NCBI GenBank assembly: GCA_027341315.1
Contig: DAIENA010000001.1
Span: forward strand, 1-38,872
Source of the DNA: an archaeon
GTDB taxonomy: Archaea > Nanobdellota > Nanobdellia > Pacearchaeales > GW2011-AR1
Length of the DNA stretch: 38,872 nt
Direction of reading: 5' to 3'
Shown: positions 6,539-28,531 of the stretch, one piece after another
Position numbering within the stretch: the first letter of the stretch is position 1
Layout: each line of letters starts with the position of its first letter
The notes under the pieces: generated by a model
The model's input: only the letters and a program-made list of their open reading frames with translations
Told to the model about the DNA's origin: nothing
The model's database searches: none
Translations under genes and position numbers: made by a program

Positions 6539-6829
6539 ATGATACCAATTCTTTTAATGATTCTTGACCTTCTGGCTTTGACGTCGCTCACGCTTGTTCA
6601 ATTCAAAATAAGTTTCGTCCCGCAACTTGCCATCCTTTCGTCGATTTATTTGATTGCAAAAGGATTTATGTTTAAGGATTTTATGAGCATTATTGATTCA
6701 ATGATTGGAGTTTATCTGATTCTCGCGTTTGCATTCGGCATTTCGTCTTTTTTATACTGGATAATTTTAATTTGGTTTATGTACAAATTATTTTTTGTGG
6801 TGTTATTTAACCTTTTCAACTTTTCATAA
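6539..6829 (+). CDS. Small integral membrane protein (about 3 TM)
   Basis: Its start abuts the cobO stop (TAGATG). Almost entirely hydrophobic. Confidence 0.5.
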   Translation: MIPILLMILDLLALTSLTLVQFKISFVPQLAILSSIYLIAKGFMFKDFMSIIDSMIGVYLILAFAFGISSFLYWIILIWFMYKLFFVVLFNLFNFS

Positions 6830-10931: not shown

Positions 10932-11121
10932 ATTTTGAAATAGGACAAAATAATTTTCAAATTATAAATTTTTTGGTAAATAATTGTTGAAAATTCCAAG
11001 AAAATCTATTAACCACAACATTTTTAAACCATTTTTTAGTATCATTTATTATAGCACGTCTATCCATAAGTTACTCCTTAGGGGCGATTGTGTAAAATTA
11101 AAAATCACCGACGACAAAAAT

Positions 11122-11334
11122 ATGCATATTCTACAACCAAAGCACATTAAAATGAATGAAAAAGAAGTTGAAGAGCTTTTGGATAAATTAAATATCTCAA
11201 AAAGTCAGTTACCGAAAATTTTGGACGGTGATGTTGCGCTTCCGGAAGGTTGTGAAATCGGGGACGTCATAAAAATCGAGAGAAAAGATTCAGAGACCGG
11301 CGAATTAAATATTTATTTTAGGGTTGTTGTATAA
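11122..11334 (+). CDS. rpoH: DNA-directed RNA polymerase subunit H (Rpo5)
   Basis: MHILQPKHIKMNEKEVEELLDKLNISKSQLPKI...GDVIKIERKDSETGELNIYFRVVV has the RpoH pattern H-x-L-x-P-K-H...QLPKI...YR-V-V. Its stop overlaps the rpoB start (TAATG). The upstream part of the ORF-track frame has no plausible start codon. Confidence 0.8.
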   Translation: MHILQPKHIKMNEKEVEELLDKLNISKSQLPKILDGDVALPEGCEIGDVIKIERKDSETGELNIYFRVVV

Positions 11335-14300
11335 TGGTTGAGGGAAAAAATCATCTTGTTGTTAAGAAATATCTTGAGGACCACTCACTTGTTGAGTCTA
11401 ACATAATTTCTTATAATGAATTCATAAGTGAAAGAATGCAGGAAATTGTCGACGACATTTCTAATTCAATTGAACAGGACGAGGAAGAATTTAAAATTCA
11501 GCTTGGAAAAATTGAAGTCGGAAAGCCCGCGGTTATAGAGGCTGACGGAAGTACGTCGACGATTATGCCATACGAAGCAAGAATAAGAAATCTCACTTAC
11601 GCCGCGCCGATAAGTCTTGAACTTACTGTGAAAAAAGACGGACAGGTCGACTCCGAAGTTGTTGAGATTGGAAAAATTCCGGTGATGGTTAAAAGTAAAG
11701 CCTGCAACACATCAGGTTTTGACAGGGAAAAACTTATAGAAAATTATCATGACCCTCTTGATCCAGGAGGATATTTTATTATTAAGGGTAATGAAAGAGT
11801 TATGGTTATGGCCGAAGACCTTGCTGAAAATCAACCGTTCATAGAAGAAAATTCAAAGGGCCAGCTTGTTTTAAAATTATTTTCACTGAAAGGAACTTAC
11901 AGAATTCCGACGACGATAAAAGAGGCAAAAGACGGAATTTTTGAAACTTCATTTTCGAGATTTAAAGATATGCCGACGGTGATATTACTTAAGGCGTTGG
12001 GATTGACAAAAGAGTCGGATATTGCAAGATACATCGGAAAGGAAACTGACAGCGTTATTGTCAACCTTTATGAATTCGCAAACATTGCAACTGAAGAAGA
12101 CGCGATGATGTACATTGCCGAGAAAACAAATCTTCAGGGTACAAAAAAAGAAATTTTAGACAGAGTAAAGCAAAGAATTGATTCTTACCTTTTCCCCCAC
12201 ATCGGGCAGAACAAGGCGTCGCGAATGAAAAAAGCAGTCACGATTTGTAAACTTGTTAAACAATTTCTTTTGGCAAAAGAAGATACAACTCTTAGAACTG
12301 ATAAAGACCATTATGCAAATAAAAGAGTTCGACTTTCAGGAGATTTATTGACGACGCTTTTCAAAGTTAACCTTGGAATTTTAATACGAGACTTGCAATA
12401 TTCACTGCAGAAATCCCAGAAGAGAAAGAAATTTTTCTCAATTAAAGTTCTTGCAAAGTCAACTTTGTTTTCTCACAGAATTGAATCAGCGATTGCGACC
12501 GGTTCATGGACGGGGGAAAGAAGCGGGGTTACGCAGAACATGGATAAGACAAATTATCTTGCGACGATTTCACAGCTTCAAAGAGTGGCAAGCATGCTTG
12601 AGTCAGGCCAGGAAAATTTTAAAGCAAGAACTCTTCACCCGACGCACTTTGGAAGATTTTGCCCGATTGAAACTCCGGAAGGAACCGAAACGGGGCTCCG
12701 AAAAAATCTTGCGTTACTCAGTAAGGTGTCAACAAGAGTGGACCTTGACGAAGACAAATTTATAAAATATCTGGAGAAGTCCGGTCTTGACAAGGAATTG
12801 AATGAAGGTTCAGAAGTTTTTTTCAACGGAAACTATATTGGAAATGTTAAAGACTCTAAAGAGTTTTCAAATTTAATTAAAGAAAAAAGAAGAGGAGGAG
12901 AACTTCCGATAGAATTAAGCATTAACGAAAAGGAGGGTCTTCAGACTATTTTAATTTCAACTGAACCGGGAAGAGTTCTCAGGCCTTTAATTGTTATTGC
13001 CGACGGAGTTTCAAAATTAAAAAATGAACATCTTATCCAGCTTGAGCAGGGAAATTTAAAATGGATAGACCTCGTTAAATCCGGAATAATTGAATATATC
13101 GACGCTGCGGAGGAAGAAAGCGCGCTCGTTGCAATGAATTCGAACGAACTCACGACGGAACACACACATATGGAAGTAGATCCTGTTGCTTTTTTAGGGG
13201 TTGTTACAAGTATAACTCCGTATGTAAACCACAATTCATGTGCTAAATTAATTAAAGGAACAAAAAGTTTCAAGCAGTCACTTGGACTTTACGCGGCAAA
13301 TTATCTTTGTAGACTTGATACAGATGTTTCGGTATTACAGTATCCGCAAAAACCAATTGTAAGAAGTTTTGTTTATGACACTTTAAACACTTATCCTGCA
13401 GGTCAGAATCTCACCGTCGCTATTATGACGCACGAAGGGTATAACATGGAAGATGCTCTTGTTTTAAACAAGGGAAGTCTTCAGCGTGGCGTCGGAAGAA
13501 GCTTTTATTTTAGACCTTACTCTGCAATTGAAATGAATTACGCCGGAGGATTAAAAGACGAAATTGTAATTCCGGACAAAGACGTTTCGGGATACAAAAT
13601 GGAATCTCTTTACGGCTCTCTTGAAAACGACGGAATAATTTATCCGGAAGCAGATATTAACGAGGGGGAAGTTTTAATTGGTAAAACTTCGCCGCCGAAA
13701 TTTTTGAGTGAAGCAAGAGAAATTTCAGTCAGAACGAAAAAAGAGTCGAGCGTAACTTTAAGACAGGAAGAAAAAGGAATTGTGGAATCTGTTTTTGTAA
13801 CAATCGACGACGAGGGAAACAAAATCGTTCAGGTAAAAACAAGAGATTTAAGAATTCCGGAACTCGGAGATAAATATGCAACTCCGTACGGGCAGAAGGG
13901 AGTTATAGGCGCAATTATCGACGAGGAAGACGTTCCGTTCACGCAAAGCGGAGTAAGACCCGACGTTTTATTTAATCCGCACGGACTTCCGAGCCGTATG
14001 AGTGTAGGTTATTTACTTGAACTCTTGGCAGGAAAAGTCGGATGTCTTCGAGGAGAAACTGTCGACGGAACTGCCTTTGGCGGGGAAACAAAAAAAGATC
14101 TTGAAGAACAGCTTCAGAATTTAGGATTCAGATACGACGGAAAAGAAACAATGAGAAGCGGAGTTACAGGGAAGAAAATTGAATCCAAAATATTTTTAGG
14201 AAATCTTTATTATTTGAAACTTAAATATATGGTTGCAAATAAAATGCACGGAAGAGCGTCGGGAAAGATTGCTCTTTTGACAAGACAGCCAATTGAAGGT

Positions 14301-14597
14301 CGTTCACGTGGCGGTGCCTTAAGACTTGGTGAAATGGAGCAACAGGCGCTTGTCGCCCACGGTGCGTCGCTGTTATTAAAAGAAAGATACGATTCAGACA
14401 AGGTCGTTCTTCCGATTTGTTCAAAGTGCGGTTCGATAGGTATCGAGGACAAAATAAGAAAAAAGACGGTTTGTCCGGAATGTCATTCGGAAGAAATTGA
14501 ACCAATCGAAGTTTCGTACGCTTTCAAACTTTTGATTGAAGAACTTCAGGGACTTCACGTTCACACTAAATTTGAATTAAAAAATAAATACGAATAA
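11334..14597 (+). CDS. rpoB: DNA-directed RNA polymerase subunit B, unsplit (B'' and B' in one gene)
   Basis: 1087 aa in the canonical position after rpoH, with GYFIIKGNERV, MTHEGYNMEDA, GEMEQQALVAHGAS and a C-terminal zinc ribbon CSKCGS...CPEC. Confidence 0.95.
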   Translation: MVEGKNHLVVKKYLEDHSLVESNIISYNEFISERMQEIVDDISNSIEQDEEEFKIQLGKIEVGKPAVIEADGSTSTIMPYEARIRNLTYAAPISLELTVKKDGQVDSEVVEIGKIPVMVKSKACNTSGFDREKLIENYHDPLDPGGYFIIKGNERVMVMAEDLAENQPFIEENSKGQLVLKLFSLKGTYRIPTTIKEAKDGIFETSFSRFKDMPTVILLKALGLTKESDIARYIGKETDSVIVNLYEFANIATEEDAMMYIAEKTNLQGTKKEILDRVKQRIDSYLFPHIGQNKASRMKKAVTICKLVKQFLLAKEDTTLRTDKDHYANKRVRLSGDLLTTLFKVNLGILIRDLQYSLQKSQKRKKFFSIKVLAKSTLFSHRIESAIATGSWTGERSGVTQNMDKTNYLATISQLQRVASMLESGQENFKARTLHPTHFGRFCPIETPEGTETGLRKNLALLSKVSTRVDLDEDKFIKYLEKSGLDKELNEGSEVFFNGNYIGNVKDSKEFSNLIKEKRRGGELPIELSINEKEGLQTILISTEPGRVLRPLIVIADGVSKLKNEHLIQLEQGNLKWIDLVKSGIIEYIDAAEEESALVAMNSNELTTEHTHMEVDPVAFLGVVTSITPYVNHNSCAKLIKGTKSFKQSLGLYAANYLCRLDTDVSVLQYPQKPIVRSFVYDTLNTYPAGQNLTVAIMTHEGYNMEDALVLNKGSLQRGVGRSFYFRPYSAIEMNYAGGLKDEIVIPDKDVSGYKMESLYGSLENDGIIYPEADINEGEVLIGKTSPPKFLSEAREISVRTKKESSVTLRQEEKGIVESVFVTIDDEGNKIVQVKTRDLRIPELGDKYATPYGQKGVIGAIIDEEDVPFTQSGVRPDVLFNPHGLPSRMSVGYLLELLAGKVGCLRGETVDGTAFGGETKKDLEEQLQNLGFRYDGKETMRSGVTGKKIESKIFLGNLYYLKLKYMVANKMHGRASGKIALLTRQPIEGRSRGGALRLGEMEQQALVAHGASLLLKERYDSDKVVLPICSKCGSIGIEDKIRKKTVCPECHSEEIEPIEVSYAFKLLIEELQGLHVHTKFELKNKYE

Positions 14598-14598
14598 A

Positions 14599-14913
14599 AT
14601 GACAGTAAAATTAATCCAGTTCGAAAAACCAGAAGAGTATGATTTAATTAAAAATTACCTTCTGGAAAAATATAAAGATGAAAAAGATTTGGTTTCACAT
14701 GTGAATGATTCAAGAGCTTATTTTGGTCTCAAGGAATATGAAGTTTCTGCCAACCGTGAAGAAAAGAGAGTAATTCTTTTCGAATTTAAAAAAGGTGGAG
14801 AAAAAATTAATAATTTAGAAAAAGAATTAAAAGGGATACTTGGTAAAAATGAATTAAGTGAGAAAACGAGGGAAGATTTTCAGAAAGTTCTGGGGGAAAC
14901 AATTAAAAATTAA
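14599..14913 (+). CDS. Small hypothetical protein sORF-1 (104 aa), paralogue of sORF-3
   Basis: Starts 1 nt after the rpoB stop (TAA-A-ATG). Shares YFG.KEYEVSAN..KRVI and GEKINNLEKEL with 15171-15473. Confidence 0.65.
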   Translation: MTVKLIQFEKPEEYDLIKNYLLEKYKDEKDLVSHVNDSRAYFGLKEYEVSANREEKRVILFEFKKGGEKINNLEKELKGILGKNELSEKTREDFQKVLGETIKN

Positions 14914-14914
14914 A

Positions 14915-15169
14915 ATGAAAACAGAAATAAAATTTAAAGATGAAAATGAGTTTGAAATAATGGGAATGCAAATAGCAAATTATTTTGAAAAGGTGCTGGG
15001 AGTTTACACTCCGGGAGAATTAAAAAGTCATTACAGTATTAAAAATGAAAATCCTGTTGAAATAGAGATCTATCACAAGGAAAGAACTATTTTTATCGAC
15101 GGGAAAACAAATCATAAGAAAAGCTTTCTTGAAAAAATTGCAAAAGAACCATCGGAGGTTTTAGTTTAA
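14915..15169 (+). CDS. Small hypothetical protein sORF-2 (84 aa)
   Basis: ATG 1 nt after the sORF-1 stop; the ORF-track start at 14858 would overlap sORF-1. The N-terminus EIKFKDENEFEIMGMQIANYFEK resembles the N-termini of the other small ORFs. Confidence 0.55.
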   Translation: MKTEIKFKDENEFEIMGMQIANYFEKVLGVYTPGELKSHYSIKNENPVEIEIYHKERTIFIDGKTNHKKSFLEKIAKEPSEVLV

Positions 15170-15170
15170 A

Positions 15171-15473
15171 ATGAACACTATAACAAATTTAGAGAAATTA
15201 AATATGACGGAAATAAAAATAATTCCCATAGAAACATACAGCCAATACGAGGCAGTCAGAGATTATCTTTTAAAACTGCATTTAGATGAAAAAAACGGAA
15301 CTTTGTTTAGAGGTAGAAATAAAACTTATTTTGGAAATGAAAAATATGAAATCTCTGCAAACATGGATAAAAAAAGAGTAATTATAATCCAAGAAAACGA
15401 GGATGGAGAAAAGATTAATAATTTAGAAAAAGAATTAAACAATGTAGTTGGAGGTTTGAATAATACAAAATGA
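15171..15473 (+). CDS. Small hypothetical protein sORF-3 (100 aa), paralogue of sORF-1
   Basis: Starts 1 nt after the sORF-2 stop. The alignment to sORF-1 is obvious by eye. An internal ATG (MTEIKII) aligns with the sORF-1 start and is an alternative start. Confidence 0.65.
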   Translation: MNTITNLEKLNMTEIKIIPIETYSQYEAVRDYLLKLHLDEKNGTLFRGRNKTYFGNEKYEISANMDKKRVIIIQENEDGEKINNLEKELNNVVGGLNNTK

Positions 15474-15733
15474 CAACAGTAGAACAATATGTCGCGTATG
15501 GAAAAATAAAGTTGAGAGAATTGGAAACAGAATTATTATTTGAATTTTCCCAAGTTAAGGCAAATTTAAAACAGTTGGAAGAAGGAAACGAAAATAGTGA
15601 ATTAGGAATTCATTGTCTTAGATTTCGAAGGATGTCTTTAGAGTTGGGATATTATGACGTGGATACTTCAAAGCTGGATAGGGAATATAAATCACTTTTG
15701 CCTCAAATAAATAAATACATTAAAGCAAGTTAA
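15470..15733 (+). CDS. Small hypothetical protein sORF-4 (87 aa, probably helical)
   Basis: ATGA overlap with the sORF-3 stop. Its own stop lies 1 nt before the rpoA ATG. No similarity seen to sORF-1, -2 or -3. Confidence 0.55.
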   Translation: MTTVEQYVAYGKIKLRELETELLFEFSQVKANLKQLEEGNENSELGIHCLRFRRMSLELGYYDVDTSKLDREYKSLLPQINKYIKAS

Positions 15734-15734
15734 A

Positions 15735-18700
15735 ATGAAAAAAACAATATCAAAAAAAATCGGAGAAATTAAGTTTTCACTTCTTAGCCCTGAAGAAATC
15801 AAGAAAATTTCAGTTGCGAAAATTGTGACGCCGGAACTTTACGATATTGACGGCTATCCCGTCGACGGTGGATTAATGGATTTAAGACTCGGAGCAATTG
15901 ACCCGGGAGTCAGATGCCGAACCTGCGGAGGGAAAATAAAAGAATGTCTTGGACACCCCGGAAGTATAGACCTTGCTAAACCAATAATTCATTTAAAATA
16001 TGTTCCGGTTATAGAACTTGGACTTAGATGCTTCTGTCAGGAATGCGGGAAACTTATGCTTGACGACAAAGACCTGAAAAAATATACTCCAAGCCAGAGA
16101 GCAAAAAAAGCAAAAGATGCAAAAAAATGCCCTCATTGTCAGGCGACTCAGGAAAAAGTAAAACTTGACAAACCAACGAGTTTTTACCGGGGGAAAACGA
16201 GAATTTTCCCGACGGAAATACGTGAGAGTCTTGTTAGAATCCCGGACGAGGAACTTAAAAAAATTGCAATCGACCCGACGACATGCAGAGTTGAATGGTC
16301 TGTTTTGAATTCATTGATTGTCCCCCCCGTAACCGTGAGACCGTCTATAATTCTTGAAACAGGGGAAAGAAGTGAAGATGACCTTACTCATAAATTGTCC
16401 GATATAATCAGAGCAAATCAAAGACTTTGGGAAAACCTAAACGCCGGAGCCCCTGAAGTTATTATTGAAGACCTTTGGGATTTATTACAATACCACGTCA
16501 CGACATTTTTTGACAACACCGTCGCCAGAGTTCCGCCAGCAAGACACAGAAGCGGTCAGCCGTTAAAAACAATTGAAGAAAGAATAAAAGGAAAAGAAGG
16601 AAGAATAAGAAAAAATATTGCAGGTAAAAGAGTTAATTATTCGGGTAGAACAGTTATTAGCCCCGACCCAAATATTAATATAAATGAAGTTGGAGTTCCT
16701 TATGAAATCGCAAAAGTTGTGACTGTTGCCGAGACTGTTAATGATTTTAATAAAGAAAAACTTTCAGAATTAATTAAAAGCGGGGAAAACTGGCCTGGAG
16801 CAAATTATGTAATAAGACCCGACGGACGAAAGAAAAAAATTACTCCGGAACTTCAGGAAGAAATTATTGAAGAATTAAAACCCGGTTACCAAGTTGAGAG
16901 ACATTTACAAAACGGGGATATCGTTTTATTCAACAGACACCCCTCACTTCACAGGGCAAGTTTAATGGCGCATTATGTTCGGGTTTTACCGGGAAGAACT
17001 TTTCGGGTTCACCCTGCTGCCGCTAATCCGTATAACGCCGACTTCGACGGTGACGAGATGAATATTCACTCTCCGCAGACTGAAGAAGCAAGAGCGGAAG
17101 CAAAAATACTTCTTGACGTTAAACAAAATTTAATTTCTCCGAAAAACAATACTAACTTAATCGGTTGTATTGTCGACGCTGTAACCGGAAATTATATGCT
17201 TGGTAAAAGAGATTTCACAAGAGAGGATGCAAATCAACTTTTGTATAAATCAGGAATTGAAGCTGAATTCAGTGGAAAGACAGTTTCAGGAAAAGAGATT
17301 TTTTCAATGGTGCTTCCTGAAATTGATTTCTCAAATAATTCTCTTGACATAAAGAAAGGAAAAGTCACTAAAGGTGAAATTGATAAATCAACTTTTGGAG
17401 ATGAAGAAGGAGAACTTGTAAAAATAATTGACGCAAAATACGGACGAAGCGCCGCTTTTGAAACTATAAGAAAGGCATTTAACCTTGGAAAAAATTATCT
17501 TTCTGAAACAGGAATCACTATTTCCGTCGAGGATTTTGATTTGGATGAAGAAACTATTGAAGAAAGTGAAAAAATAATTAAGGCGACGGAAAAGAAGGCT
17601 GAGGAAATAATCAAATCTTACGAGGACGGAACACTTGAACTTATTCCGAGTAAATCTCTTGAAGAATCACGGGAGATTCACTTATTGAAGGTTCTTAATG
17701 AAGCGAGAACAAAAATCGGTGCGATGGTTAAAGAAAGATTCCCTGAAACAAATCCGGTTGACCACATGATAAAGTCCGGTGGCGGGGGAAACATTTTGAA
17801 TATTACACAAATGGCGTCGAGTGTTGGTCAGCAGGCTTTTGCCGGCGGAAGAATCGACATCGGGTACACTCAAAGAACTCTTCCATTTTTCAAGAGAGGA
17901 GATTTGTCGCCGCGTTCGAGAGGATTTATCAGAAATGGTTTTATAAGAGGGCTTAAACCCGACGAATTTTTCTTCCAGTCAATTACAGGAAGAGATTCAA
18001 TTATGGACACTGGTTTACGAACTCCTAAGTCGGGATATTTGTATAGACGTCTAGCTAACGCGCTTCAGGACATGAGAGTCGAATACGACGGAACAATAAG
18101 AGATTCAGGAAACAATATAATTCAATTCCAGTACGGCGTCGACGGATATGACGTTTCGAAAATCCACCTGAAAGAAAAAATTTCTCCGGGTGAAGCGGTC
18201 GGACTCGTGACGGCGCAGTCTTTCGGTGAAGCTTCGACGCAGATGGTCCTTAACACGTTCCACATGGCCGGTGTTGCTGAAATGCAGGTTACAACCGGTT
18301 TACCCAGAATAATCGAAATTTTTGATGCAAGGAAAAAACCTTCTTCTCCGAAAATGGAAATTTATCTTGAGAAAGATTATGACAATGAAGAAGAAGCAAA
18401 ATCTTTTGCAGAGAGAATAAAAGAAGTTACATTAAAGGAAGTCTCTACGGAAATTAATCTTGACTTTGGAGAAAAAGTAATTACAATTAATCTAGACAAA
18501 GATGAACTTAAAAAAACTCATGCAACTCCAAATAAGGTTGCCGAGAGACTTAATGAATTAGGATTTAAAGTTGAAAATAAAGGAAACTCGATTGTCCTTA
18601 ACGCTTCGGATTATCAATTTAAAGAAATTTATCAACTTAAAGAAAAATTAAAGAAATCAATTATTTCAGGAATTAAGGGAATTGAACAGATTTTAATTTC

Positions 18701-19223
18701 TAAGAGAGGAAAAGATTTTATTGTAATCACCCTTGGAACAAATTTGGAAGAAATGATGAAGATGAAAGAGGTTGACAAAAAAAGAATTATATCAAATGAT
18801 TTACATGAAGTTGCACGGGTTCTTGGAATTGAAGTTGCAAGACAATTAATAATAAATGAAATTAAGGAAGTTCTTGATTCCCAGGGTCTTGACATTCATG
18901 TTAAACATCTTGAGTTAATTGCCGACGCTATGACAAACACCGGAGAAGTTAAGGGAGTTACGAGAATGGGAATTATCGCCCAGAAGGCGTCTATACTTGC
19001 AAGAGCAACTTTTGAAACCCCTGTAAGGCAGTTTGTGAATGCAATTATTAAAGGCTCGTCAGATAAACTTGAAAGTGTTATTGAAAACGTCATACTTAAT
19101 CAGCCGGTTCCCGTCGGTACAGGGCTTCCCGGTCTTCTCGTGAACGTTATCGGTTCTTTGGCCGGAGATGACAAACACAAAAAAACTGCCGAGTCGAAAA
19201 TTGTCGAAGAAGCAAATAAATAA
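15735..19223 (+). CDS. rpoA: DNA-directed RNA polymerase subunit A, single unsplit gene (A' and A'' equivalents fused)
   Basis: One 1162-aa ORF carries the zinc-binding N-terminus, NADFDGDEMN (catalytic Mg site), the bridge helix GRDSIMDTGLRTPKSGYLYRRL, and the A''-type trigger-loop region PGEAVGLVTAQSFGEASTQMVLNTFHMAGV. There is no stop or frame change between them. Confidence 0.9.
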   Translation: MKKTISKKIGEIKFSLLSPEEIKKISVAKIVTPELYDIDGYPVDGGLMDLRLGAIDPGVRCRTCGGKIKECLGHPGSIDLAKPIIHLKYVPVIELGLRCFCQECGKLMLDDKDLKKYTPSQRAKKAKDAKKCPHCQATQEKVKLDKPTSFYRGKTRIFPTEIRESLVRIPDEELKKIAIDPTTCRVEWSVLNSLIVPPVTVRPSIILETGERSEDDLTHKLSDIIRANQRLWENLNAGAPEVIIEDLWDLLQYHVTTFFDNTVARVPPARHRSGQPLKTIEERIKGKEGRIRKNIAGKRVNYSGRTVISPDPNININEVGVPYEIAKVVTVAETVNDFNKEKLSELIKSGENWPGANYVIRPDGRKKKITPELQEEIIEELKPGYQVERHLQNGDIVLFNRHPSLHRASLMAHYVRVLPGRTFRVHPAAANPYNADFDGDEMNIHSPQTEEARAEAKILLDVKQNLISPKNNTNLIGCIVDAVTGNYMLGKRDFTREDANQLLYKSGIEAEFSGKTVSGKEIFSMVLPEIDFSNNSLDIKKGKVTKGEIDKSTFGDEEGELVKIIDAKYGRSAAFETIRKAFNLGKNYLSETGITISVEDFDLDEETIEESEKIIKATEKKAEEIIKSYEDGTLELIPSKSLEESREIHLLKVLNEARTKIGAMVKERFPETNPVDHMIKSGGGGNILNITQMASSVGQQAFAGGRIDIGYTQRTLPFFKRGDLSPRSRGFIRNGFIRGLKPDEFFFQSITGRDSIMDTGLRTPKSGYLYRRLANALQDMRVEYDGTIRDSGNNIIQFQYGVDGYDVSKIHLKEKISPGEAVGLVTAQSFGEASTQMVLNTFHMAGVAEMQVTTGLPRIIEIFDARKKPSSPKMEIYLEKDYDNEEEAKSFAERIKEVTLKEVSTEINLDFGEKVITINLDKDELKKTHATPNKVAERLNELGFKVENKGNSIVLNASDYQFKEIYQLKEKLKKSIISGIKGIEQILISKRGKDFIVITLGTNLEEMMKMKEVDKKRIISNDLHEVARVLGIEVARQLIINEIKEVLDSQGLDIHVKHLELIADAMTNTGEVKGVTRMGIIAQKASILARATFETPVRQFVNAIIKGSSDKLESVIENVILNQPVPVGTGLPGLLVNVIGSLAGDDKHKKTAESKIVEEANK

Positions 19224-19299
19224 TATTTTTAATTTTGTATTAATTATTTAGAGGTTACATATTCGAAAAGTTTAAAAGTCATCGTCCTTATCCTTTGAT

Positions 19300-20550
19300 A
19301 TGAAAAACTTAGTGTGTGATAATTCAAGAGAAGACTTTCCTGTAGATTATATCGGTGGAAAAGGAAAAGGATTACTAAAATTAAAAAATCTGGAAAAAGA
19401 ACTTAGACAGGAATATTTTTGGAGAATAAAAAAAGTGGAAATTCCAAATTTTTTTATAATTCCTGTGGGTTATGATTTAAATTTTAAAGAAAATTTATTT
19501 AAGTTGGCCGATTCCTTAGGACCTAAAAAACTTGCTGTGCGTTCGTCGTCTCCATATGAAGACGCGGAAAATAATTCTTTTGACGGCATTTTTGAAAGCC
19601 ATCTTGATGTTTCAAGAGACGACCTTCTTGAAGCAATTAATAGTGTAAAAAATTCAGCATTGGGGAAAAAAGCTGTGGAATATTCAAAAGAATTCAATGT
19701 TCCTATTGACAACAAAATGGCAGTTATTGTGCAAAAAATGGTGTCGAGGGAAAATACAGGAATAATTTACTCAAAGTTTCCGGCTATTTCTGATGTAACA
19801 AGAATTATTTCAAATTTTGGAAATAAAACTGAAAATATTCTTTTTGAAAGAAAAACTTTAGATTATTATGATGAAAGTGGCAATGAAATCAAAGAGAAGA
19901 AAATTGTTTCTGGCAGGAGAATAATCCAAGACGGGAATTTGGGCCATATTGATTTTTTTAGTGGATTTTCTGAACTTTCTCATTTTGTTGAAAAAAAATT
20001 TGGTTACCCTGTGAGAATTGAATATTCTTATGACGGAGAAAAAGAGGAATTAAATTTATTGCAAGCACGTTCTATAGAGAAGGGAAAAAGTTTGGAAAAA
20101 ATTATAATGCCCGAACTTGAAGCTGGAAATTTAATTGCCGGAACTTATGGAGTAAATGGAATTGGAGACGTCACACTTCCGTTAGTTAATATAATTAATT
20201 CTAAAGAAGATGGAAAAGAACATCATATCTCAGAAAATGAAATTGAAAAGTTAGACAAGAAATATAAAAATGGTTATATTCTTCTTGCACAATATTTAAA
20301 ATTTGATGATAATTATATTGATCCTATAACCCCCCATAAAAAAGCCGCCATAATTGGGAGTCAATTTTTGGGAGGAGATGATAGCCCCGACCATGATTGG
20401 GATATAGCAAGAAAAAAAGGATTGCTTTATCTTTTAATTCCGGATTTTTATTTTGAATTTTCCGGAGACAGGAAATCACCATTGAAAACTGGAGATATGG
20501 TGAGAATTATCAGCGACGGGGTTAAAGGAATGGTTTACAAAGTTGATTAA
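19300..20550 (+). CDS. PEP/pyruvate-binding (PPDK_N, ATP-grasp) domain protein with a C-terminal PEP-utilising-enzyme mobile (swivel) domain; no third domain
   Basis: IGGKGKGLLKL, LAVRSSSPYEDAENNSFDGIFES and MAVIVQKMV are typical of the PEP synthase/PPDK N-terminal domain. The C-terminus LGGDDSPDHDWDIARKKG...GDMVRIISDGVKGMVYKV resembles the phospho-His swivel domain (GGxxSHxAIxAR...G..V.VDG..G.V). Confidence 0.6.
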   Translation: MKNLVCDNSREDFPVDYIGGKGKGLLKLKNLEKELRQEYFWRIKKVEIPNFFIIPVGYDLNFKENLFKLADSLGPKKLAVRSSSPYEDAENNSFDGIFESHLDVSRDDLLEAINSVKNSALGKKAVEYSKEFNVPIDNKMAVIVQKMVSRENTGIIYSKFPAISDVTRIISNFGNKTENILFERKTLDYYDESGNEIKEKKIVSGRRIIQDGNLGHIDFFSGFSELSHFVEKKFGYPVRIEYSYDGEKEELNLLQARSIEKGKSLEKIIMPELEAGNLIAGTYGVNGIGDVTLPLVNIINSKEDGKEHHISENEIEKLDKKYKNGYILLAQYLKFDDNYIDPITPHKKAAIIGSQFLGGDDSPDHDWDIARKKGLLYLLIPDFYFEFSGDRKSPLKTGDMVRIISDGVKGMVYKVD

Positions 20551-20586
20551 GTAAAAATAAATATTAAAAATTCTTAAAACAACAAT

Positions 20587-20594
20587 TTTATAAA
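20587..20594 (+). promoter_or_regulatory. TATA box (TTTATAAA) for nusA
   Basis: Centre about 30 nt upstream of the ATG at 20620. Confidence 0.45.
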
Positions 20595-20619
20595 GCGATT
20601 TGGTATAAAGAAATTATAT

Positions 20620-21036
20620 ATGGTCAACACAATTGATATGCAGGACTTAAGAAGACTCGCTCTCTTTAGAAAAATTACAAGACTTGAAACAAGATATTGT
20701 TTTAGTTATAATGAGATATTAATGTTTTGTGTTCCAAAAAGAGAAGTTTCAATCGCTCTTGGAAGAAACGGAGAAAATCTTAAAAGAATGTCGGATATAT
20801 TAAAAAAAAGAGTTAGAATTATTCCGCTTCCAAACGGAATTAACGACGCGAAATCGTTTATACAAGCCGTTATTGCTCCAGTCGGATTTACCGGAATCGA
20901 AATCACGCCTGATGAAATCGTCGTCAACGCCGGCTCCGAAAATAAGGCGGCGCTTCTTGGACGAAACAAACGGCGATTCCTTGAAATGAAAAAAATCGTT
21001 AAAGATTTTTTTAGACTTGAATACAGAATTATTTAA
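20620..21036 (+). CDS. nusA: Archaeal NusA-like transcription termination/antitermination factor (two KH domains)
   Basis: 138 aa in the typical position between rpoA and rps12, with KH-like GRNGENLKRMSDIL and LLGRNKRRFLEMKKIV. Confidence 0.8.
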   Translation: MVNTIDMQDLRRLALFRKITRLETRYCFSYNEILMFCVPKREVSIALGRNGENLKRMSDILKKRVRIIPLPNGINDAKSFIQAVIAPVGFTGIEITPDEIVVNAGSENKAALLGRNKRRFLEMKKIVKDFFRLEYRII

Positions 21037-21361
21037 CTTTTTTTTCGAGAACCGAATTAATTACGTCTGAATATTCTTTATAAGATTCTTTTATACAATT
21101 TTTTACAGATTCTGGATTGTGAGGAAATTCTTGAATAAATTCTGATTCGGTAATAAATCCGTAATATTTTTTATTTTTGTTTCTATCGCTTACGTCTATG
21201 ACGTCGACGTAACACTCGTCTACATTAACATTTTTTACAATGGCGGGATGATAATCAAACTCAATTTCTCTCGCAACAACTTCCCAAACCAAATCTCCGG
21301 GCTTTATACCTTCAAACCTTGCTTTTTGCTTTTGATAATTGTTTTTGGTTAATAGTTCCAT
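21029..21361 (-). CDS. Hypothetical protein (110 aa), opposite strand, convergent with nusA (8-nt overlap)
   Basis: Intact ORF. PGDLVWEVVAREIEFDYHPAIV resembles the first strands of Tudor/PWWP-type SH3-like barrels (weak, by eye). Confidence 0.45.
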   Translation of the reverse strand: MELLTKNNYQKQKARFEGIKPGDLVWEVVAREIEFDYHPAIVKNVNVDECYVDVIDVSDRNKNKKYYGFITESEFIQEFPHNPESVKNCIKESYKEYSDVINSVLEKKVK

Positions 21362-21470
21362 AAATATAATTTTCGATTAAATTATTAAATATTTTTACAA
21401 AGAAAAGTATATTTCAAAAAACGAAATTTATTAAAACTCTTTAGTTCTTTAGTCTTTATATGGGTTTTAA

Positions 21471-21782
21471 ATGAAAAAAATTATCAACAATTATTCTTCA
21501 CAGGTAATTTACCGCGGAGAAAAAAAGGAACTTGAAAATATTTTGAAGATTCTCTGCCAAAATTTAGGCACTGGTTTTGAAGAGCAAATATCAGTTTTTT
21601 CAAAGGAAGATAAAAAAATAGAAAGTCCAGACCAAAGAATATATTACAATCTTGAAAGAATTCTTTATATTTCAAACTCATCGAAGCCGAAATTTTTATT
21701 TCCGATAATTCTAAAAATTTCCAAAAAGGCCGATGAGAAATTTTCTGAAAAATACGGGAAAATTGACATGATTGAGAAATAA
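21471..21782 (+). CDS. Hypothetical protein (103 aa)
   Basis: ORF only; no motif recognised. Confidence 0.4.
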   Translation: MKKIINNYSSQVIYRGEKKELENILKILCQNLGTGFEEQISVFSKEDKKIESPDQRIYYNLERILYISNSSKPKFLFPIILKISKKADEKFSEKYGKIDMIEK

Positions 21783-21838
21783 TTTATTTTTTGATTGCAA
21801 AAAATGTCCTCGCGATTTTTAAAAATATACCCAATAAA

Positions 21839-21846
21839 TTTATAAA
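21839..21846 (+). promoter_or_regulatory. TATA box (TTTATAAA) for rps12
   Basis: Centre about 31 nt upstream of the ATG at 21874. Confidence 0.45.
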
Positions 21847-21873
21847 CCAATTTTATTAAGAATATCTATCAAG

Positions 21874-22296
21874 ATGGGATTGAAAAGTGCATTCAAAAAA
21901 GTGAAAGACCGGAAGAAATTCCGATGGAAAGACAGAGCTTACAAAGTTCACACTCTTGACCTTTTTGCTAAGTCTGACCCACTTGGCGGAGCCAATCAGG
22001 CAAAGGGAATTGTTCTTTCAAAATTTCAAAAAGAAGCAAGACAGCCAAACTCCGCGATGAGAAAATGCTGCAGAGTTCAGCTGACAAAAAATGGAAAGAC
22101 CGTCGGTGTTTTTATTCCCGGAAACCTCGCGCAGAAATTTATCGACGAGCACGACGAAGTTATGATTGAAAGAATCGGCGGGAAACAGGGAAAAAGTAAA
22201 GGCGACATGCCCGGAATTCGATATCAAATTATAAAAGTAAATGATCAACCATTGCAAAGACTTGTAAGAGGGAAGATACAAAAAGGTAGAAGATAA
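21874..22296 (+). CDS. rps12: 30S ribosomal protein uS12
   Basis: [27 protein letters not shown] and [15 protein letters not shown] are hallmark archaeal S12 segments. Confidence 0.95.
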
Positions 22297-22297
22297 A

Positions 22298-22597
22298 ATG
22301 GAAAAAACTTTTGAATTCAGTGATGAAAAATATTATGGACAGGTTATTCCTTATATGGAAAAAAAATTTCCCGGCTTAACAGGGAGTAAACTGGAAGATT
22401 TTTATTATGTTCCTGCTGGAGCCAGTGTGGGTCACGATTTAAAAGACGGAACTAAGGCTCTTATTGGTAAAGCAATACATTCCCGCGTTCAGGTAAAAGT
22501 TTTCTCCGACGACGAAGAGTTATTTAAAGAGTTAGGGGAATTAGAAAAACTTACGTCGACGACCGGACGAAACGGCGGGACGGGGACGGGAAATTAA
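22298..22597 (+). CDS. Small hypothetical protein sORF-A (99 aa), paralogue of sORF-B
   Basis: Starts 1 nt after the rps12 stop. The N-terminus TFEFSDEKYYGQVIPYMEKKF matches sORF-B EFQFLREAYYRQVIPLLEEYF. Gly/Thr-rich C-terminal tail. Confidence 0.6.
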   Translation: MEKTFEFSDEKYYGQVIPYMEKKFPGLTGSKLEDFYYVPAGASVGHDLKDGTKALIGKAIHSRVQVKVFSDDEELFKELGELEKLTSTTGRNGGTGTGN

Positions 22598-22907
22598 AAT
22601 GACAGAAGAGTTTCAATTTTTAAGAGAAGCGTATTATAGGCAAGTTATTCCTTTATTGGAAGAATATTTTTCTGATAAAGAACTTGGAAAGAAAATTTTA
22701 GCAGATAAGTCTTTACACAATTTAGATAATCTTGCAATGATTTATAATGATTTTTTTAATGAAAATAAGGGAGAAATATTAATAATTACTCCTTCAAAAA
22801 TATCTCCTGAAAAATTTGTTTTGGTGGTTACCTCGAAAGATGAAAAATTAATGAAAGGATTAGAAAAATTATCAATGGGGGAAGTAGGAAATTAAAATGA
22901 CAGAAGA
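22589..22907 (+). repeat. Perfect 21-bp direct repeat GGAAATTAAAATGACAGAAGA at 22589-22609 and 22887-22907, bracketing sORF-B
   Basis: Read directly. The copies are exactly 298 bp apart. Each spans a stop codon, the 1-nt spacer and the first four codons (MTEE) of the next gene. Confidence 0.9.
22599..22895 (+). CDS. Small hypothetical protein sORF-B (98 aa), paralogue of sORF-A
   Basis: Starts 1 nt after the sORF-A stop and ends 1 nt before the rps7 ATG. Begins MTEE, as rps7 does. Confidence 0.6.
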   Translation: MTEEFQFLREAYYRQVIPLLEEYFSDKELGKKILADKSLHNLDNLAMIYNDFFNENKGEILIITPSKISPEKFVLVVTSKDEKLMKGLEKLSMGEVGN

Positions 22908-23529
22908 ACAAGAAATAAAAACTGAAGGTAAAAAATTGAATTTCAAGATTTTTGATATGTGGGACATTTCAGAAATAAAAGTTGAAGATCCTGGATTAAG
23001 AGGGATTATTAACCTTGAACCAAAATTAATTTTGAAATCCGAAGGAAGAAACGTCGTTAAACACGGACAGACGCGGGTGAATATCGTTGAGAGACTTATG
23101 AATAAAATCGCGCTTACCGGACACCGAGGGAAAAAACACAAAATTGAAGTTGGAAGAGCGACCGGAAAATATTCACGAAATATGAAAATTGTTATCGAGG
23201 CTCTTCAGGCCGTCGAGAAAAAAACCGGAAAAAATCCGGTCGAAGTTTTGGTTCGTGCGATTGAAAAAATTTCTCCAAGGGACGAAACAACAATAATTGA
23301 ATACGGCGGTGCAAGATATCCTCAAGCAGTCGACGTTTCGCCAATACGACGTGTTAACCTTGCTTTAAGAAATCTTGTTCACGGCGCAAGCGACAAATCG
23401 TTCGGGAAAAAGAAAAAACTTTCGCAGTCACTTGCTGACGAAATAATTCTCGCCTACGAAGAAAACGGGGAAAGTTCTGCCCTGAAAAAGAAAAAAGAAG
23501 CCGAGGCGCAGGCAGACAGCGCAAGATAA
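22897..23529 (+). CDS. rps7: 30S ribosomal protein uS7
   Basis: IVERLMNKIALTGH, NPVEVLVRAIEKISPRDETTIIEYGGARYPQAVDVSPIRRVNLALRNL is the archaeal S7 pattern. Confidence 0.95.
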   Translation: MTEEQEIKTEGKKLNFKIFDMWDISEIKVEDPGLRGIINLEPKLILKSEGRNVVKHGQTRVNIVERLMNKIALTGHRGKKHKIEVGRATGKYSRNMKIVIEALQAVEKKTGKNPVEVLVRAIEKISPRDETTIIEYGGARYPQAVDVSPIRRVNLALRNLVHGASDKSFGKKKKLSQSLADEIILAYEENGESSALKKKKEAEAQADSAR

Positions 23530-23588: not shown

Positions 23589-24059
23589 ATGACAGATTTT
23601 GATGAACTCAAAGAAAGTTTAGAAAGAGATTACTCGACGGGCGACGCGGTGCATAAAATGATTACCGACGAATTGTTTGAGGATATCAGAGTAAAAGAGA
23701 AGAAACTTGAAAATATAGTTTCTAATGAGTTCAAGAGATTAATAGAAATTCCAAACATGATAATTCCTCCCCGTAAAAATAAAGGCGAAATGCCTCAAAT
23801 ATTGGAATACAAGGTTTCTTACAATAAAGAATTAAAAGATTTTGAAATAAAAATAACAAAAATGAAACTTCCAAACGGAAAAGTAATGGACGACAATAAA
23901 TACGCGTCGAGAACTTACGGATGTCCGCACGATTATACGTTTCCGATTTGCGGAATAAACGGAGAAGTCAGCAACATTGTAAAAGAATTCAAAATAAAGT
24001 ACAACGTCCGGGGAATAAAAAATGTCAACCACAACTGTTTTCACGAGATAAAGAAATAA
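23589..24059 (+). CDS. Hypothetical protein (156 aa) with a Cys/His-containing C-terminal region
   Basis: ORF with its own TATA box. The C-terminus YGCPHDYTFPICG...HNCFHE could bind metal (speculative). Confidence 0.5.
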   Translation: MTDFDELKESLERDYSTGDAVHKMITDELFEDIRVKEKKLENIVSNEFKRLIEIPNMIIPPRKNKGEMPQILEYKVSYNKELKDFEIKITKMKLPNGKVMDDNKYASRTYGCPHDYTFPICGINGEVSNIVKEFKIKYNVRGIKNVNHNCFHEIKK

Positions 24060-24107: not shown

Positions 24108-24395
24108 ATGTATGATGAATTGGTAAAAGAAATGCTGAACAAGGGAAAGAAACAGTCTCTTGAAACAATTGATGGGATAGAAAGAATTCTTAAAAGTCAA
24201 TATGGAAGTATTGAGGGAAATGGGGTTCTAAAACCGGACAAGAACTTAAATGAGAATTATAATCTTTTAATAAATGCCCTCGGAAATTATAAAAAATCAA
24301 TAATTAATTTTTGGAATTCGCAAAAGAAAAAAATATCAGGACTTGGCATTCTTGAAACCGTCGTTTCAGAAAATTCCAAAAAAAGAAAAAAATAA
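24108..24395 (+). CDS. Hypothetical protein (95 aa)
   Basis: ORF only. Confidence 0.4.
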   Translation: MYDELVKEMLNKGKKQSLETIDGIERILKSQYGSIEGNGVLKPDKNLNENYNLLINALGNYKKSIINFWNSQKKKISGLGILETVVSENSKKRKK

Positions 24396-24415: not shown

Positions 24416-24940
24416 CTAAAATTTAAATTCCTCGCCACCTTGTTCCCATTCTTTCCTTATCTTTTCAGTTAAAAAATCCTTTGAAACTCTTCCGCTCCAC
24501 TCGTCGCTTCCTTTTTTTCTGTATGGAATGTAAAAATCCGGATCGTTATAAAAATTATAAGATTTTAAAACAGGATATTTTGTGTCTGTATTTTTTCTGA
24601 AAAATTTTGGTTCGCCAACTAATCCTTTTTGAATAAATACGTTAAGATAATAATTATAAGACTTTGTTGCCATTTCATCGACAAACGGATTAACCACCTC
24701 TTCTATCCATAATTTTTTATTTTTGTCCAAGAAATCAATTGACTTGTAAGTTTGCTCCCCATAAGTTTTTGTGATTATTTCTTGGTAAATATCTTTCCAA
24801 AATTCATGACGGCATCCCCCAAACATAATTAATCCATCGTTCGCGTCTGCGGATTCAACAAAATTTACATAAGCGTCAATTTCAAATTTATTCTCAAGAC
24901 CCGTTCTTTCGCTGATCCTTTTTTTTATTTTTTCATCCAT
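24416..24940 (-). CDS. Hypothetical protein (174 aa)
   Basis: Intact minus-strand ORF between rps7 and the EF-2 gene. No motif recognised. Confidence 0.5.
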   Translation of the reverse strand: MDEKIKKRISERTGLENKFEIDAYVNFVESADANDGLIMFGGCRHEFWKDIYQEIITKTYGEQTYKSIDFLDKNKKLWIEEVVNPFVDEMATKSYNYYLNVFIQKGLVGEPKFFRKNTDTKYPVLKSYNFYNDPDFYIPYRKKGSDEWSGRVSKDFLTEKIRKEWEQGGEEFKF

Positions 24941-27709: not shown

Positions 27710-28531
27710 ATGAATAATTCAAAAAATCCGGTTAAGGAGACTCTAAAGAAGAGATATCCAAACATGAATGAATTTCTTTTTGAAACTTCATATTTTTTAT
27801 TGAAGCATATAATAAATGAAAAAGGGTTAAATGAAATTCTTTTGAAAAATGGAAAATTTTACGGGATTGATTTTGCAAATGCTATACTTAATTATCTAAA
27901 CATTAATTATAATCTGCATGGAAAAATTCCGGATGAAGGGAGGTATATATTCACTTCTAATCATCCATCAAATGGAATTGATGGAAATATACTTATGAGT
28001 GCGGTCGGAGGTAAAAACAAAAACATCAAATTTTTTGTCGCAGATTTTATTTCTGAATATGAAAATTATAAAGATATTTTTTTACCAACTGACTTTTCAG
28101 GAAAAAAAGGAAGAGAAAACACAAAAAAAGTCATAAATGCCTTAGAATCAAATTCACAAATTATAATATTTCCTGCCGGAGATATTTCAGTAAAAATTAA
28201 AGATAAAATAAGAGACATTCCTTGAAATTCAAGTGTAGTGAATTGGTCCAAAAAGTATGAACGGGATATTGTCCCAGTTTATTTTAATGGGAAAAATTCA
28301 AATTTATTTTACTTAGTTTCAAGGCTGAGACTGTTTTTTAAAATAAAAGGAAATCTTGAAAAACTATTTATGGTCAGAGAAATAACATCTCAGCGTGGAA
28401 AAACATTTGATATTGTTTTTGGAGAACCTATTCCTTATCAAAATTTTACAAATGAAAAAACTTCAAAAGAATGGGCTGACCAAATTTATAATAAAGTTTA
28501 TTCGCTTGAGGAAAAATTAATAAGAATATAA
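27710..28531 (+). pseudogene. PlsC/'putative hemolysin'-type acyltransferase interrupted by one in-frame TGA (28223-28225)
   Basis: The two ORF-track pieces (27710-28225 and 28238-28531) are in the same frame. The N-terminal piece has the HX4D motif (NHPSNGID) and IIIFPAGD. The C-terminal piece continues the same domain (RDIVPVYFNGKNSNLFY). Only the TGA and four sense codons separate them. Confidence 0.6.

Follow-up and report, generated by a model that had tools for sequence, protein, structure and literature searches.

Five of six small ORFs filling the rpoB-rpoA and S12-S7 junctions of a DPANN archaeon probably form one divergent superfamily

In a 38,872-nucleotide (nt) stretch of archaeal DNA (GenBank contig DAIENA010000001.1; hereafter the window, 38.9 kb), small open reading frames (ORFs) lie end to end between rpoB and rpoA, and again between the genes for ribosomal proteins S12 and S7. 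Has a single protein family come to occupy gene junctions in both the RNA polymerase and the ribosomal protein operon? The original prediction, made by eye from the letters, had proposed this for five of the six small ORFs, which seemed to share an N-terminal pattern and a C-terminal LEK helix, and had set the sixth apart. All six are present, each on the + strand. The rpoB-rpoA gap holds s1 (104 amino acids (aa), 14599..14913), s2 (84 aa with an ATG start, 14915..15169), s3 (100 aa, 15171..15473) and s4 (87 aa, 15470..15733), and the S12-S7 gap holds sA (99 aa, 22298..22597) and sB (98 aa, 22599..22895). Our profile comparisons suggest that s1, s2, s3, sA and sB fall into a single, highly divergent superfamily, undescribed and restricted to this lineage, and we hold their homology to be likely, with good confidence.

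We compared the six ORFs, together with four other small ORFs nearby, by BLASTP, which connected only two pairs. We observed that s1 matched its paralog s3 over 80 aa (42.5% identity, E = 2e-20), and that sA matched its tandem paralog sB over the first 24 residues only (50%, E = 3e-5). Because plain BLASTP was too weak, the family claim needed profiles and hence homologues. These small-ORF families are extremely rare in protein databases, so we fetched loci by neighbourhood: 80 from genomes with S12 as the anchor, and 80 from metagenomes with the RpoB C-terminus as the anchor. Each of the 160 loci was taken with 10-kb flanks, so that both junctions were covered. Identifiers L001-L172 denote the related contigs and strains compared with the window.

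At the RNA polymerase locus, s1 and s3 matched, along their full length, a subfamily represented by two other rpoB-rpoA ORFs (L021:5353 and L034:5478; hhalign P = 3.7e-6, 77 columns). The same subfamily matched s2 over its full length (P = 1e-4, 73 columns), and reversed decoys scored no higher than 17. On this profile evidence s2, a divergent B-type member, joins s1 (subfamily B1) and s3 through an intermediate subfamily. At the ribosomal locus, sA and sB fell into one S12-S7 family of ~10 members in a hidden Markov model (HMM) search (subfamily A; 94-100 bits for sB). The member of this family in L018 sits after EF-1alpha. As predicted, s4 stood apart: it aligned to a separate rpoB-rpoA family (L017:5358/L034:5186; hhalign P = 2.9e-5, 72 columns) and had no match to either the A (sA/sB) or the B (rpoB-rpoA) profile. 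Its BLAST cluster, f1, has six members, all at rpoB-rpoA junctions (the window, L017/L089, L034 and others).

We iterated a mixed A+B HMM on a database of 8686 sequences, comprising 4343 ORFs and 4343 reversed decoys. The set grew from 15 to 34 members. Eighteen of the 19 recruits were rpoB-rpoA or S12-S7 ORFs, a class that makes up ~2% of the database, and no decoy was recruited; recruits and the rest were cleanly separated in score (≥36 bits versus 14). One recruit, L034:20035, is a membrane protein that matches the LEK helix only and is likely a false positive. HMM-detectable members numbered nine at rpoB-rpoA, 23 at S12-S7 and one after EF-1alpha. The search of related loci yielded further copies, and the occupation of gene junctions proved broader than first proposed. 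Iterations with A only and B only stayed separate on the first 80 loci and merged with the larger locus set.

Profiles built separately from the S12-S7 and the rpoB-rpoA members aligned end to end (hhalign probability 84.5%, P = 6.9e-6, 78 columns). Reversed controls of these junction-separated profiles scored ~10 (P = 0.35-0.41), which speaks against the low-complexity Lys/Glu composition that had been named as the alternative. The top outside match of the S12-S7-only HMM was s1 of the window (E = 4.8e-4). Some members of the S12-S7 profile had first been recruited by the mixed profile, a circularity that counts against this comparison. To avoid it, we seeded an HMM with sA and sB alone; at E ≤ 1e-3 it recruited three S12-S7 ORFs and then the rpoB-rpoA ORF L091:10455-10706, a member of the bridging subfamily. 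The following match was L021:5353 (E = 0.0014), and none of the 4343 decoys was recruited. Unrelated junction families (s4, c83, L077/81, L022/74 and L010/13) had no score to the A or B profile. Profile-profile comparison and predicted folds had been chosen beforehand as the test on which a single family of five could fall; the profiles matched significantly against reversed controls, and the two predicted folds had one element order and overlapping weak PDB neighbours.

The predicted motifs, E..Y....V..YL and LEK.L, were nearly the sole well-conserved columns of the 33-member alignment, and the region between them was full of substitutions and indels. We obtained AlphaFold2 (AF2) models of s1 (predicted local distance difference test score (pLDDT) 82.6, predicted template modelling score (pTM) 0.71) and sA (pLDDT 84.9, pTM 0.75). 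The s1 model consists of strand 2-7, helix 11-24, strands 32-35, 39-43, 47-52 and 57-62, and helix 68-80, a predicted β1-α1-β2-β3-β4-β5-α2 topology with an additional low-confidence C-terminal helix. The sA model consists of strand 2-8, helix 9-23, two short helices, strands 43-47, 53-59 and 63-69, and helix 73-84, giving a predicted β1-α1-(two short helices)-β-β-β-α2 topology with a disordered Gly/Thr tail. Three strands and two short helices in sA thus stand where s1 has four strands, and the models of s1 and sA share a β-α-β(3-4)-α layout. In both models the N-terminal motif corresponds to β1 and α1, with Y....YL on α1, and LEK.L lies on α2. The α1 and α2 motifs appear to form a conserved scaffold, with a hypervariable sheet region between them.

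Structural neighbours of the models were weak. The best Foldseek match of s1 was 2jpi (E = 0.016, template modelling (TM) score normalised to query 0.43), with the PMM/PGM entry 2f7l (E = 0.045, TM 0.52) and AlkA 3ogd (E = 0.16) further down; those of sA were the spermine synthase N-domain 3c6m (E = 0.026) and the PGM-family entries 9ix8 and 4hjh (E ~0.05). Weak PDB neighbours common to both models were the PGM-family C-terminal domain, AdoMetDC-like, KA1 and Roadblock/Ragulator domains; s1 also matched AlkA, Pcc1 and the N-terminal domain of RNase HIII. Several of these neighbours we take to be TBP-like β-α-β4-α domains in the sense of SCOP. TBP-like/KA1-like domains (PGM C-terminal, AlkA, RNase HIII N-terminal and kinase KA1) recur among the top weak neighbours of both models, and their element order equals that of s1. 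They differ from s1 and sA in showing no sequence similarity, and their TM scores normalised to the query are 0.36-0.52. The TBP-like order β-α-β-β-β-β-α is present in the s1 model, and sA is one strand short of it. We treat the TBP-like assignment as a lead and not as a result.

We compared the small ORFs with several collections of known families. The best Pfam matches of the six ORFs (E = 0.03-0.2) lay well under gathering scores; the best NCBIfam match had E = 0.029, every PHROGs match had E ≥ 0.011, every PADLOC match had E ≥ 0.0039 and <15 bits, and the best match of a PDB sequence profile search had E = 0.15. No HMM match tied them to core archaeal RNA-polymerase or ribosomal small subunits such as Rpo13, RpoG and L30e. 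A word-indexed search of 5.8 billion proteins with the s1 sequence and the A and B alignments returned the seeds and near-identical strains only. When 1.84 billion representatives were searched exhaustively with a profile, 18 matched, five of which were new small members; two repeat proteins among the 18 were regarded as spurious. P0018, from this search, is a 481-aa protein that resembles a lipoprotein and contains some eight tandem repeats, each ~45-55 residues long (…IKIK.YL..KYPNA…DGTYSV.VK.KDGK.VVVTFDKNGNF.KE), and its weak match to the superfamily profile in five stretches (E = 1.4e-4) was regarded as spurious or analogous. No relative of family A or B was found in viral contigs, and a Pfam scan of the ~40 main ORFs of the window found no integrase, recombinase or transposase.

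The junction ORFs are under purifying selection. The ratio of nonsynonymous to synonymous substitution rates (dN/dS) was 0.22 for s1 compared with its L001 ortholog, and 0.09-0.53 across 11 orthologous junction-ORF pairs. These ratios, the confident folds and the recurrence in independent assemblies rule out chance ORFs. Superfamily members are ~70-105 aa long and cytoplasmic, and those checked had neither signal peptides nor transmembrane segments. Tandem paralog pairs are frequent (s1/s3, sA/sB, and others in L014, L034, L039 and L041). The ortholog of s2 in L090 (L090:4385, BLAST cluster f22) is the sole small ORF, or cassette, at rpoB-rpoA in that locus.

How are such cassettes placed with respect to translation? 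The small ORFs fill both gaps of the window completely. Seven of the eight boundaries read TAAaATG (a stop, 1 nt and ATG), and the s3/s4 boundary is an ATGA overlap. The 3′ end of rpoB runs into s1 as TAC GAA TAA A ATG, S12 runs into sA as AGA TAA A ATG, and rpoA starts 1 nt past the s4 stop. Empty junctions in related loci read GAA-TAA-A-ATG (rpoB-rpoA) and AGA-TAA-A-ATG (S12-S7), and TAAAATG is therefore the native coupled junction. We observed a TAAAATG end in 53% of 183 junction ORFs compared to 13% of control genes, and an ATGA-type overlap at 19% of junction ORF ends.

Cassette ends carry a further signature. Asn was the terminal residue of 32% of junction ORFs compared to 3.4% of controls, and among TAAAATG endings the last codon was AAT or AAC in 50% compared to 1.3%. 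Shine-Dalgarno (SD)-like motifs lie 6-22 nt ahead of the next ATG; SD-like 5-mers occurred at 40% of junction ORF ends, in 8% of ORF interiors and upstream of 12% of other long genes. Asn/GGAG ends stand at 14907-14917, 22589-22601 and 22887-22899 of the window and in loci L009-L168. Recurrent tails that end in …KGEEN, …GEVGN or …VGGKN before the stop encode GGAG, an A-rich spacer, the stop and the start. Because these elements set the tails, part of the C-terminal similarity noted originally is an RNA-level signal.

We considered other readings of these ends and rejected them. Terminal Asn could be an intein-like feature, but the ORFs are separate and the RNA-level signal explains it better. 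Stop-codon read-through that fuses cassettes to RpoB or RpoA does not fit the frame, which shifts by +1 at each junction. Inteins and free-standing homing endonucleases were set aside because the ORFs are separate and +1-shifted and have no nuclease family match.

Termination-reinitiation in archaea requires overlaps or very short distances (PMC10666635), as are found at these junctions. The cassettes may thus be translated in relay, with ribosomes handed on to rpoA or S7.

We next consider how widely the junctions are filled. Of 136 contigs, 54 had an rpoB-rpoA gap of ≤60 nt and 75 had one of ≥150 nt; of 116 contigs, 44 had an S12-S7 gap of ≤60 nt and 65 had one of ≥150 nt. Occupancy of the two was roughly independent (both filled in 23, rpoB-rpoA only in 22, S12-S7 only in 30 and neither in 17). 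Filled junctions contained one to four + strand ORFs of ~55-165 aa, end to end, and five in L171. The 184 junction ORFs formed 34 small BLAST clusters and 84 singletons, and no BLAST-level cluster among them spanned both junction types. Since no BLAST-level subfamily crosses from one junction type to the other, the spread to both loci is old; recent expansion is by local tandem duplication, as judged from s1/s3 and sA/sB. The predicted expanding family therefore held for local duplication and not for recent movement between loci. Likewise, members do colonise both loci, but only ~18% of junction ORFs are detectable superfamily members.

Closely related strains differ by whole cassettes. The array s1-s2-s3-s4 is found in the window and L004. 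In L171 and L172 it reads n76-s1-s2-s3-s4, with flanks 100% and 99.95% identical to the window, and in L001 and L002 it reads c83-s1-c118, with flanks 98.5-99.2% identical and breakpoints at the junctions. The n76 insert of L171 is bracketed by the 7-nt repeat AAAATGA. This ORF (L171:138-368, 76 aa, MKKEYTKVVEM…KVNKLESQLNAF) lies ahead of s1 and shows a β-α…α pattern by eye. We do not claim it as a member (superfamily HMM E = 2.2). The superfamily may be larger than the HMMs show, because n76 resembles members without scoring.

Direct repeats were observed at several cassette boundaries. A perfect 21-nt repeat, GGAAATTAAAATGACAGAAGA, occurs on the + strand at 22589..22609 and, at the sB-S7 junction, at 22887..22907 (100%, spacing 298 nt). 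The two copies flank sB exactly, and the left copy covers the SD-like GGA, spacer, stop, start and first four codons; sB and S7 both start with MTEE. An imperfect 23-nt repeat (83%) has one + strand arm at the s1-s2 junction (14907..14929) and the other at the s4-rpoA junction (15727-15749). It encloses s2-s3-s4, the block that is replaced by another ORF in sister strain L001. The repeat search also found a 115-nt direct repeat (14717-14831 and 15325-15439, 76%). Homology of s3 to s1 starts only at 15204 (MTEIK), and the first 11 codons of s3 resemble the start of cassette c83 in L001: the first 34 nt of c83 (L001:1081-1114) are 85% identical to window 15180-15213 (blastn). The 5′ extension of s3 thus looks like a recombination scar. 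We rejected general target-site duplication, in which the start of a cassette would be a copy of the start of the gene downstream (mean shared prefix 0.94 nt versus 0.84 nt in controls), with sB/S7 as an exception.

Cassette GC was below core GC in 93% of cases. The same subfamilies recurred at the same junction in genomes with ~80-90% identical RpoB, in differing positions and combinations. This rearranged recurrence fits flank recombination combined with tandem duplication and with loss through microhomology; it may also be compatible with decay from a larger array in an ancestor. It is a habit of this lineage to slot strain-variable small genes into the stop/start junctions of essential operons.

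Taken together, these data favour, with moderate confidence, an explanation in which one superfamily forms coupled junction cassettes in recombining arrays. Apparently promoter-less cassettes lie exactly in the native TAA-A-ATG of two naturally coupled essential gene pairs, rpoB-rpoA and S12-S7. Each would probably be translated by termination-reinitiation, because its start lies 1 nt past the preceding stop. The small 3′ module that a cassette usually carries, made of a GGAG-like motif, an A-rich spacer (often with an AAT Asn codon) and TAA-A-ATG, would pass the ribosome on, either to the cassette that follows or to the essential gene that has been displaced. Arrays would grow through tandem duplication, and whole cassettes would be gained or lost at short direct repeats (7 to 21 nt) made by the junctions themselves. 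We infer recombination as the mechanism of exchange: with highly conserved core genes on both sides, cassettes probably move between strains by homologous recombination, and subfamilies would thereby remain confined to their own junction types. The protein may be a small binding module that dimerises and has a variable sheet face, and its production would keep pace with the synthesis of RNA polymerase and ribosomes. It is probably a dispensable accessory and not a core subunit.

A more far-reaching version of this explanation seems doubtful to us, though worth stating. Pacearchaeota-type DPANN archaea would carry an integrase-free cassette system whose attachment site is the stop-start junction of essential coupled operons. 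Its unit would be a bare ORF with a 3′ restart module, excised and integrated through junction repeats and protected from decay by the downstream essential gene. As its founding cargo, able to duplicate itself, it would have had the putatively TBP-like superfamily, whose variable sheet face would act in strain-level conflict or host interaction.

Several points weigh against the single superfamily and its coupled, recombining arrays. The direct A versus B hhalign comparison was marginal (P = 1.2e-3, probability 20%, 75 collinear columns), and the A-B significance, as far as sequence profiles go, hinges on bridging subfamilies, which makes the link between the loci indirect. Since the exhaustive search yields just 18 proteins, inference at the family level has little depth. 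The AF2 input alignments were shallow (7 and 8 sequences only), and Foldseek found nothing at E < 1e-3 for either model in PDB or BFVD. The equivalence of folds has a limited basis, namely element order and common weak neighbours. Member-like by eye, n76 fails to score with the HMM, and the isoelectric points of members range from 4.4 to 9.6 and so point to no ligand that all would share. For coupling and for what the SD-like motif does we argue from sequence, and native rpoB 3′ ends have no SD-like motif. Flanking-repeat and target-duplication signatures are rare overall.

Could the rpoB-rpoA and S12-S7 ORFs be alike only through convergence or composition, as Lys/Glu-rich proteins with amphipathic helices from at least two unrelated families? 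BLASTP finds nothing between the loci, the A-only and B-only iterations did not merge on the first 80 loci, the direct A versus B comparison reached just P = 1.2e-3, and the common tails (…GE.N before the stop) are explained by an RNA-level signal rather than by protein homology. However, reversed controls keep both composition and helix periodicity and still gave P = 0.35-0.41 compared to 6.9e-6, and the alignment runs collinearly from end to end. The HMM seeded with sA and sB alone recruited an rpoB-rpoA ORF at E ≤ 1e-3 with 0/4343 decoys, unrelated junction families scored against neither profile, and the predicted element order is equal in both models. We therefore regard convergence as quite improbable. 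That the ORFs are not genes at all, but chance frames in expanded AT-rich spacers or assembly artefacts, would agree with their short, AT-rich sequence, the lack of a database family and the handful of homologues among billions of proteins. This reading is effectively refuted by the fully filled gaps with 1-nt spacing and fixed orientation, recurrence in independent NCBI, ENA, Logan and JGI assemblies, dN/dS below 1 and high-confidence AF2 models.

Two further explanations accept the ORFs as genes and differ over what they do. Cassettes might be selfish passengers, which persist and duplicate without benefit because a stop or an imprecise deletion would uncouple the essential downstream gene. 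Their exact placement in essential coupled junctions with a 3′ restart module on each cassette, the many unrelated families that share the slots (84 of the 184 ORFs are singletons), rapid turnover, GC below core genes in 93% and the lack of functional domains detectable with Pfam, NCBIfam, PHROGs or PADLOC all suit such a life. Selection on an open frame alone does not account for dN/dS of 0.09-0.53, which implies amino-acid constraint, and the confident compact folds from very shallow alignments, scaffold motifs kept across deep divergence and the absence of any mobility gene or viral relative among our searches argue the same way; we judge pure selfishness unlikely. Alternatively, the cassettes could be lineage-specific accessory subunits or assembly factors, those at rpoB-rpoA for RNA polymerase and those at S12-S7 for the small ribosomal subunit, kept at these junctions by a need for stoichiometric co-translation with their partners. 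Subunits of heteromeric complexes are over-represented among tightly coupled gene pairs (PMC10666635), each BLAST-level subfamily keeps strictly to one junction type, a four-cysteine (Cys4) class is found in 35/95 rpoB-rpoA ORFs compared to 2/89 S12-S7 ORFs, and the genes are under purifying selection. The distribution is patchy, with empty junctions in ~40% of related genomes, whole-cassette differences between near-identical strains, copy numbers from 0 to 5 and two junctions filled roughly independently. One superfamily occurs at the junctions of both machines and after EF-1alpha, and exchange through flank homology explains junction specificity equally well. We consider a role as dedicated subunits distinctly unlikely, and return to coupled cassettes of one superfamily as the preferred explanation.

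Unrelated small-ORF families (the s4 family, the c83 family and the Cys4 class) occupy the same slots. ORFs of the Cys4 class, defined by at least four Cys, are ~60-90 aa long with the pattern C-P-x(4-7)-C … [FY]-C-x(5-9)-C. They were observed at the rpoB-rpoA junction of L018, L020, L025, L031, L044, L052, L082, L088, L092, L101, L102, L116, L125, L136, L139 and other loci, and may be metal-binding small proteins specific to the RNA-polymerase junction. Two other small ORFs of the window without a known family (4863-5177 and 6539-6829) lie tight against conserved genes, one overlapping the end of a ribonucleotide reductase gene and the other starting right after the BtuR/CobO stop. Neither scores with the superfamily HMM, and both could be junction cassettes that belong to other families.

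The source organism is a DPANN archaeon of the Pacearchaeota/Woesearchaeota type (GTDB Nanoarchaeota), and its S12 is 79-94% identical to S12 of metagenome-assembled genomes named Pacearchaeota or Woesearchaeota. Window genes recur in two NCBI assemblies (GCA_027332365.1 and GCA_021825165.1) and in several from ENA and Logan. In order, the genes are rpoH (10984-11334), rpoB, s1, s2, s3, s4, rpoA, a PPDK_N-like gene and nusA (20620-21036), followed by two small ORFs, S12, sA, sB, S7, three ORFs and EF-2 (25027-27222). The upstream anchor of the first junction is a fused rpoB (B, 1087 aa, 11334..14597, +) and the downstream anchor a fused rpoA (A′+A″, 1162 aa, 15735..19223, +), assigned by Pfam RNA_pol_Rpb2_1-7 and RNA_pol_Rpb1_1-5, respectively, on the identical L004 genes. 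The second junction lies between S12 (21874..22296, +, Pfam Ribosom_S12_S23) and S7 (22897..23529, +, Pfam Ribosomal_S7).

Other slots of this region also vary. The archaeal rpoA-nusA slot usually holds L30e; in the window (19300-20550) it holds a 416-aa PPDK_N-domain protein, and in another strain (L006:690-1517) a 275-aa Aminotran_4 protein. Between nusA and S12, small ORFs without a known family lie at 21029-21361 (-) and 21471-21782 (+), and also in L005-L008; they are missing in L004, L169 and L170, where S12 follows ~115 nt after nusA. Three ORFs without a family match lie between S7 and EF-2 (23589-24059, 24108-24395 and 24416-24940 (-)). EF-2 directly follows S7 in L018, and in L004 the 95-aa and 174-aa ORFs of this gap are missing. 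Farther along, an Acyltransf_2 domain is split over the adjacent ORFs 27710-28225 and 28238-28531 (profile positions 3-163 and 177-262), which represents a split gene, a frameshift or a pseudogene.

If our preferred explanation is true, the most conserved and highly expressed operon junctions of these minimal-genome archaea would double as landing pads for fast-evolving small genes, and would offer cheap expression of novelty to a genome with few promoters. The "universal" adjacencies rpoB-rpoA and S12-S7 would then not be fixed in DPANN archaea. The analysis yields a testable set of undescribed small proteins (the fold-level superfamily, the Cys4 class and several others), a defined RNA-level module for work on termination-reinitiation in archaea, and a presence/absence polymorphism in near-identical strains that can be traced in population metagenomes.

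How do these arrays compare with known systems? The literature searched contained translational-coupling papers only, with no description of this cassette arrangement. Like coupled archaeal gene pairs (Huber et al., PMC6728339, PMC10666635), the junctions have a stop/start overlap or a spacing of a few nt, and the native rpoB-rpoA and S12-S7 pairs encode subunits of heteromeric machines. They differ in that the usual spacing is +1 nt (TAA-A-ATG) rather than a -4 or -1 overlap, and in that the chain is extended by up to five non-core ORFs. Phage morons and integration hotspots likewise involve strain-variable accessory genes that lie between conserved genes, have GC below the flanks and are probably swapped through recombination in the conserved DNA on either side. 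However, a moron usually comes with a promoter and a terminator of its own, a hotspot is usually found between operons and not inside the coupled junction of an essential pair, and no phage or viral relatives were found for the cassettes.

The arrays also resemble those of integrons. Both consist of same-orientation, mostly promoter-less single-ORF cassettes, with a short conserved sequence at each boundary and strain-variable content from many unrelated families without assigned function, and our cassettes are presumably expressed from upstream signals, as those of integrons are. Unlike in integrons, no integrase was found in the 38.9-kb window, and no attC-like inverted repeat was found at cassette ends; inverted repeats in 14400-15900 and 22200-23000 were short (12-18 nt) and scattered. 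The site here is the stop-start junction of essential genes (TAAAATG), the cassettes are without any non-coding DNA, and at least two to three sites per genome lie inside core operons of an archaeal host. Accessory-gene hotspots and cassette arrays are known; the arrangement described here varies on them and carries a protein superfamily that is new.

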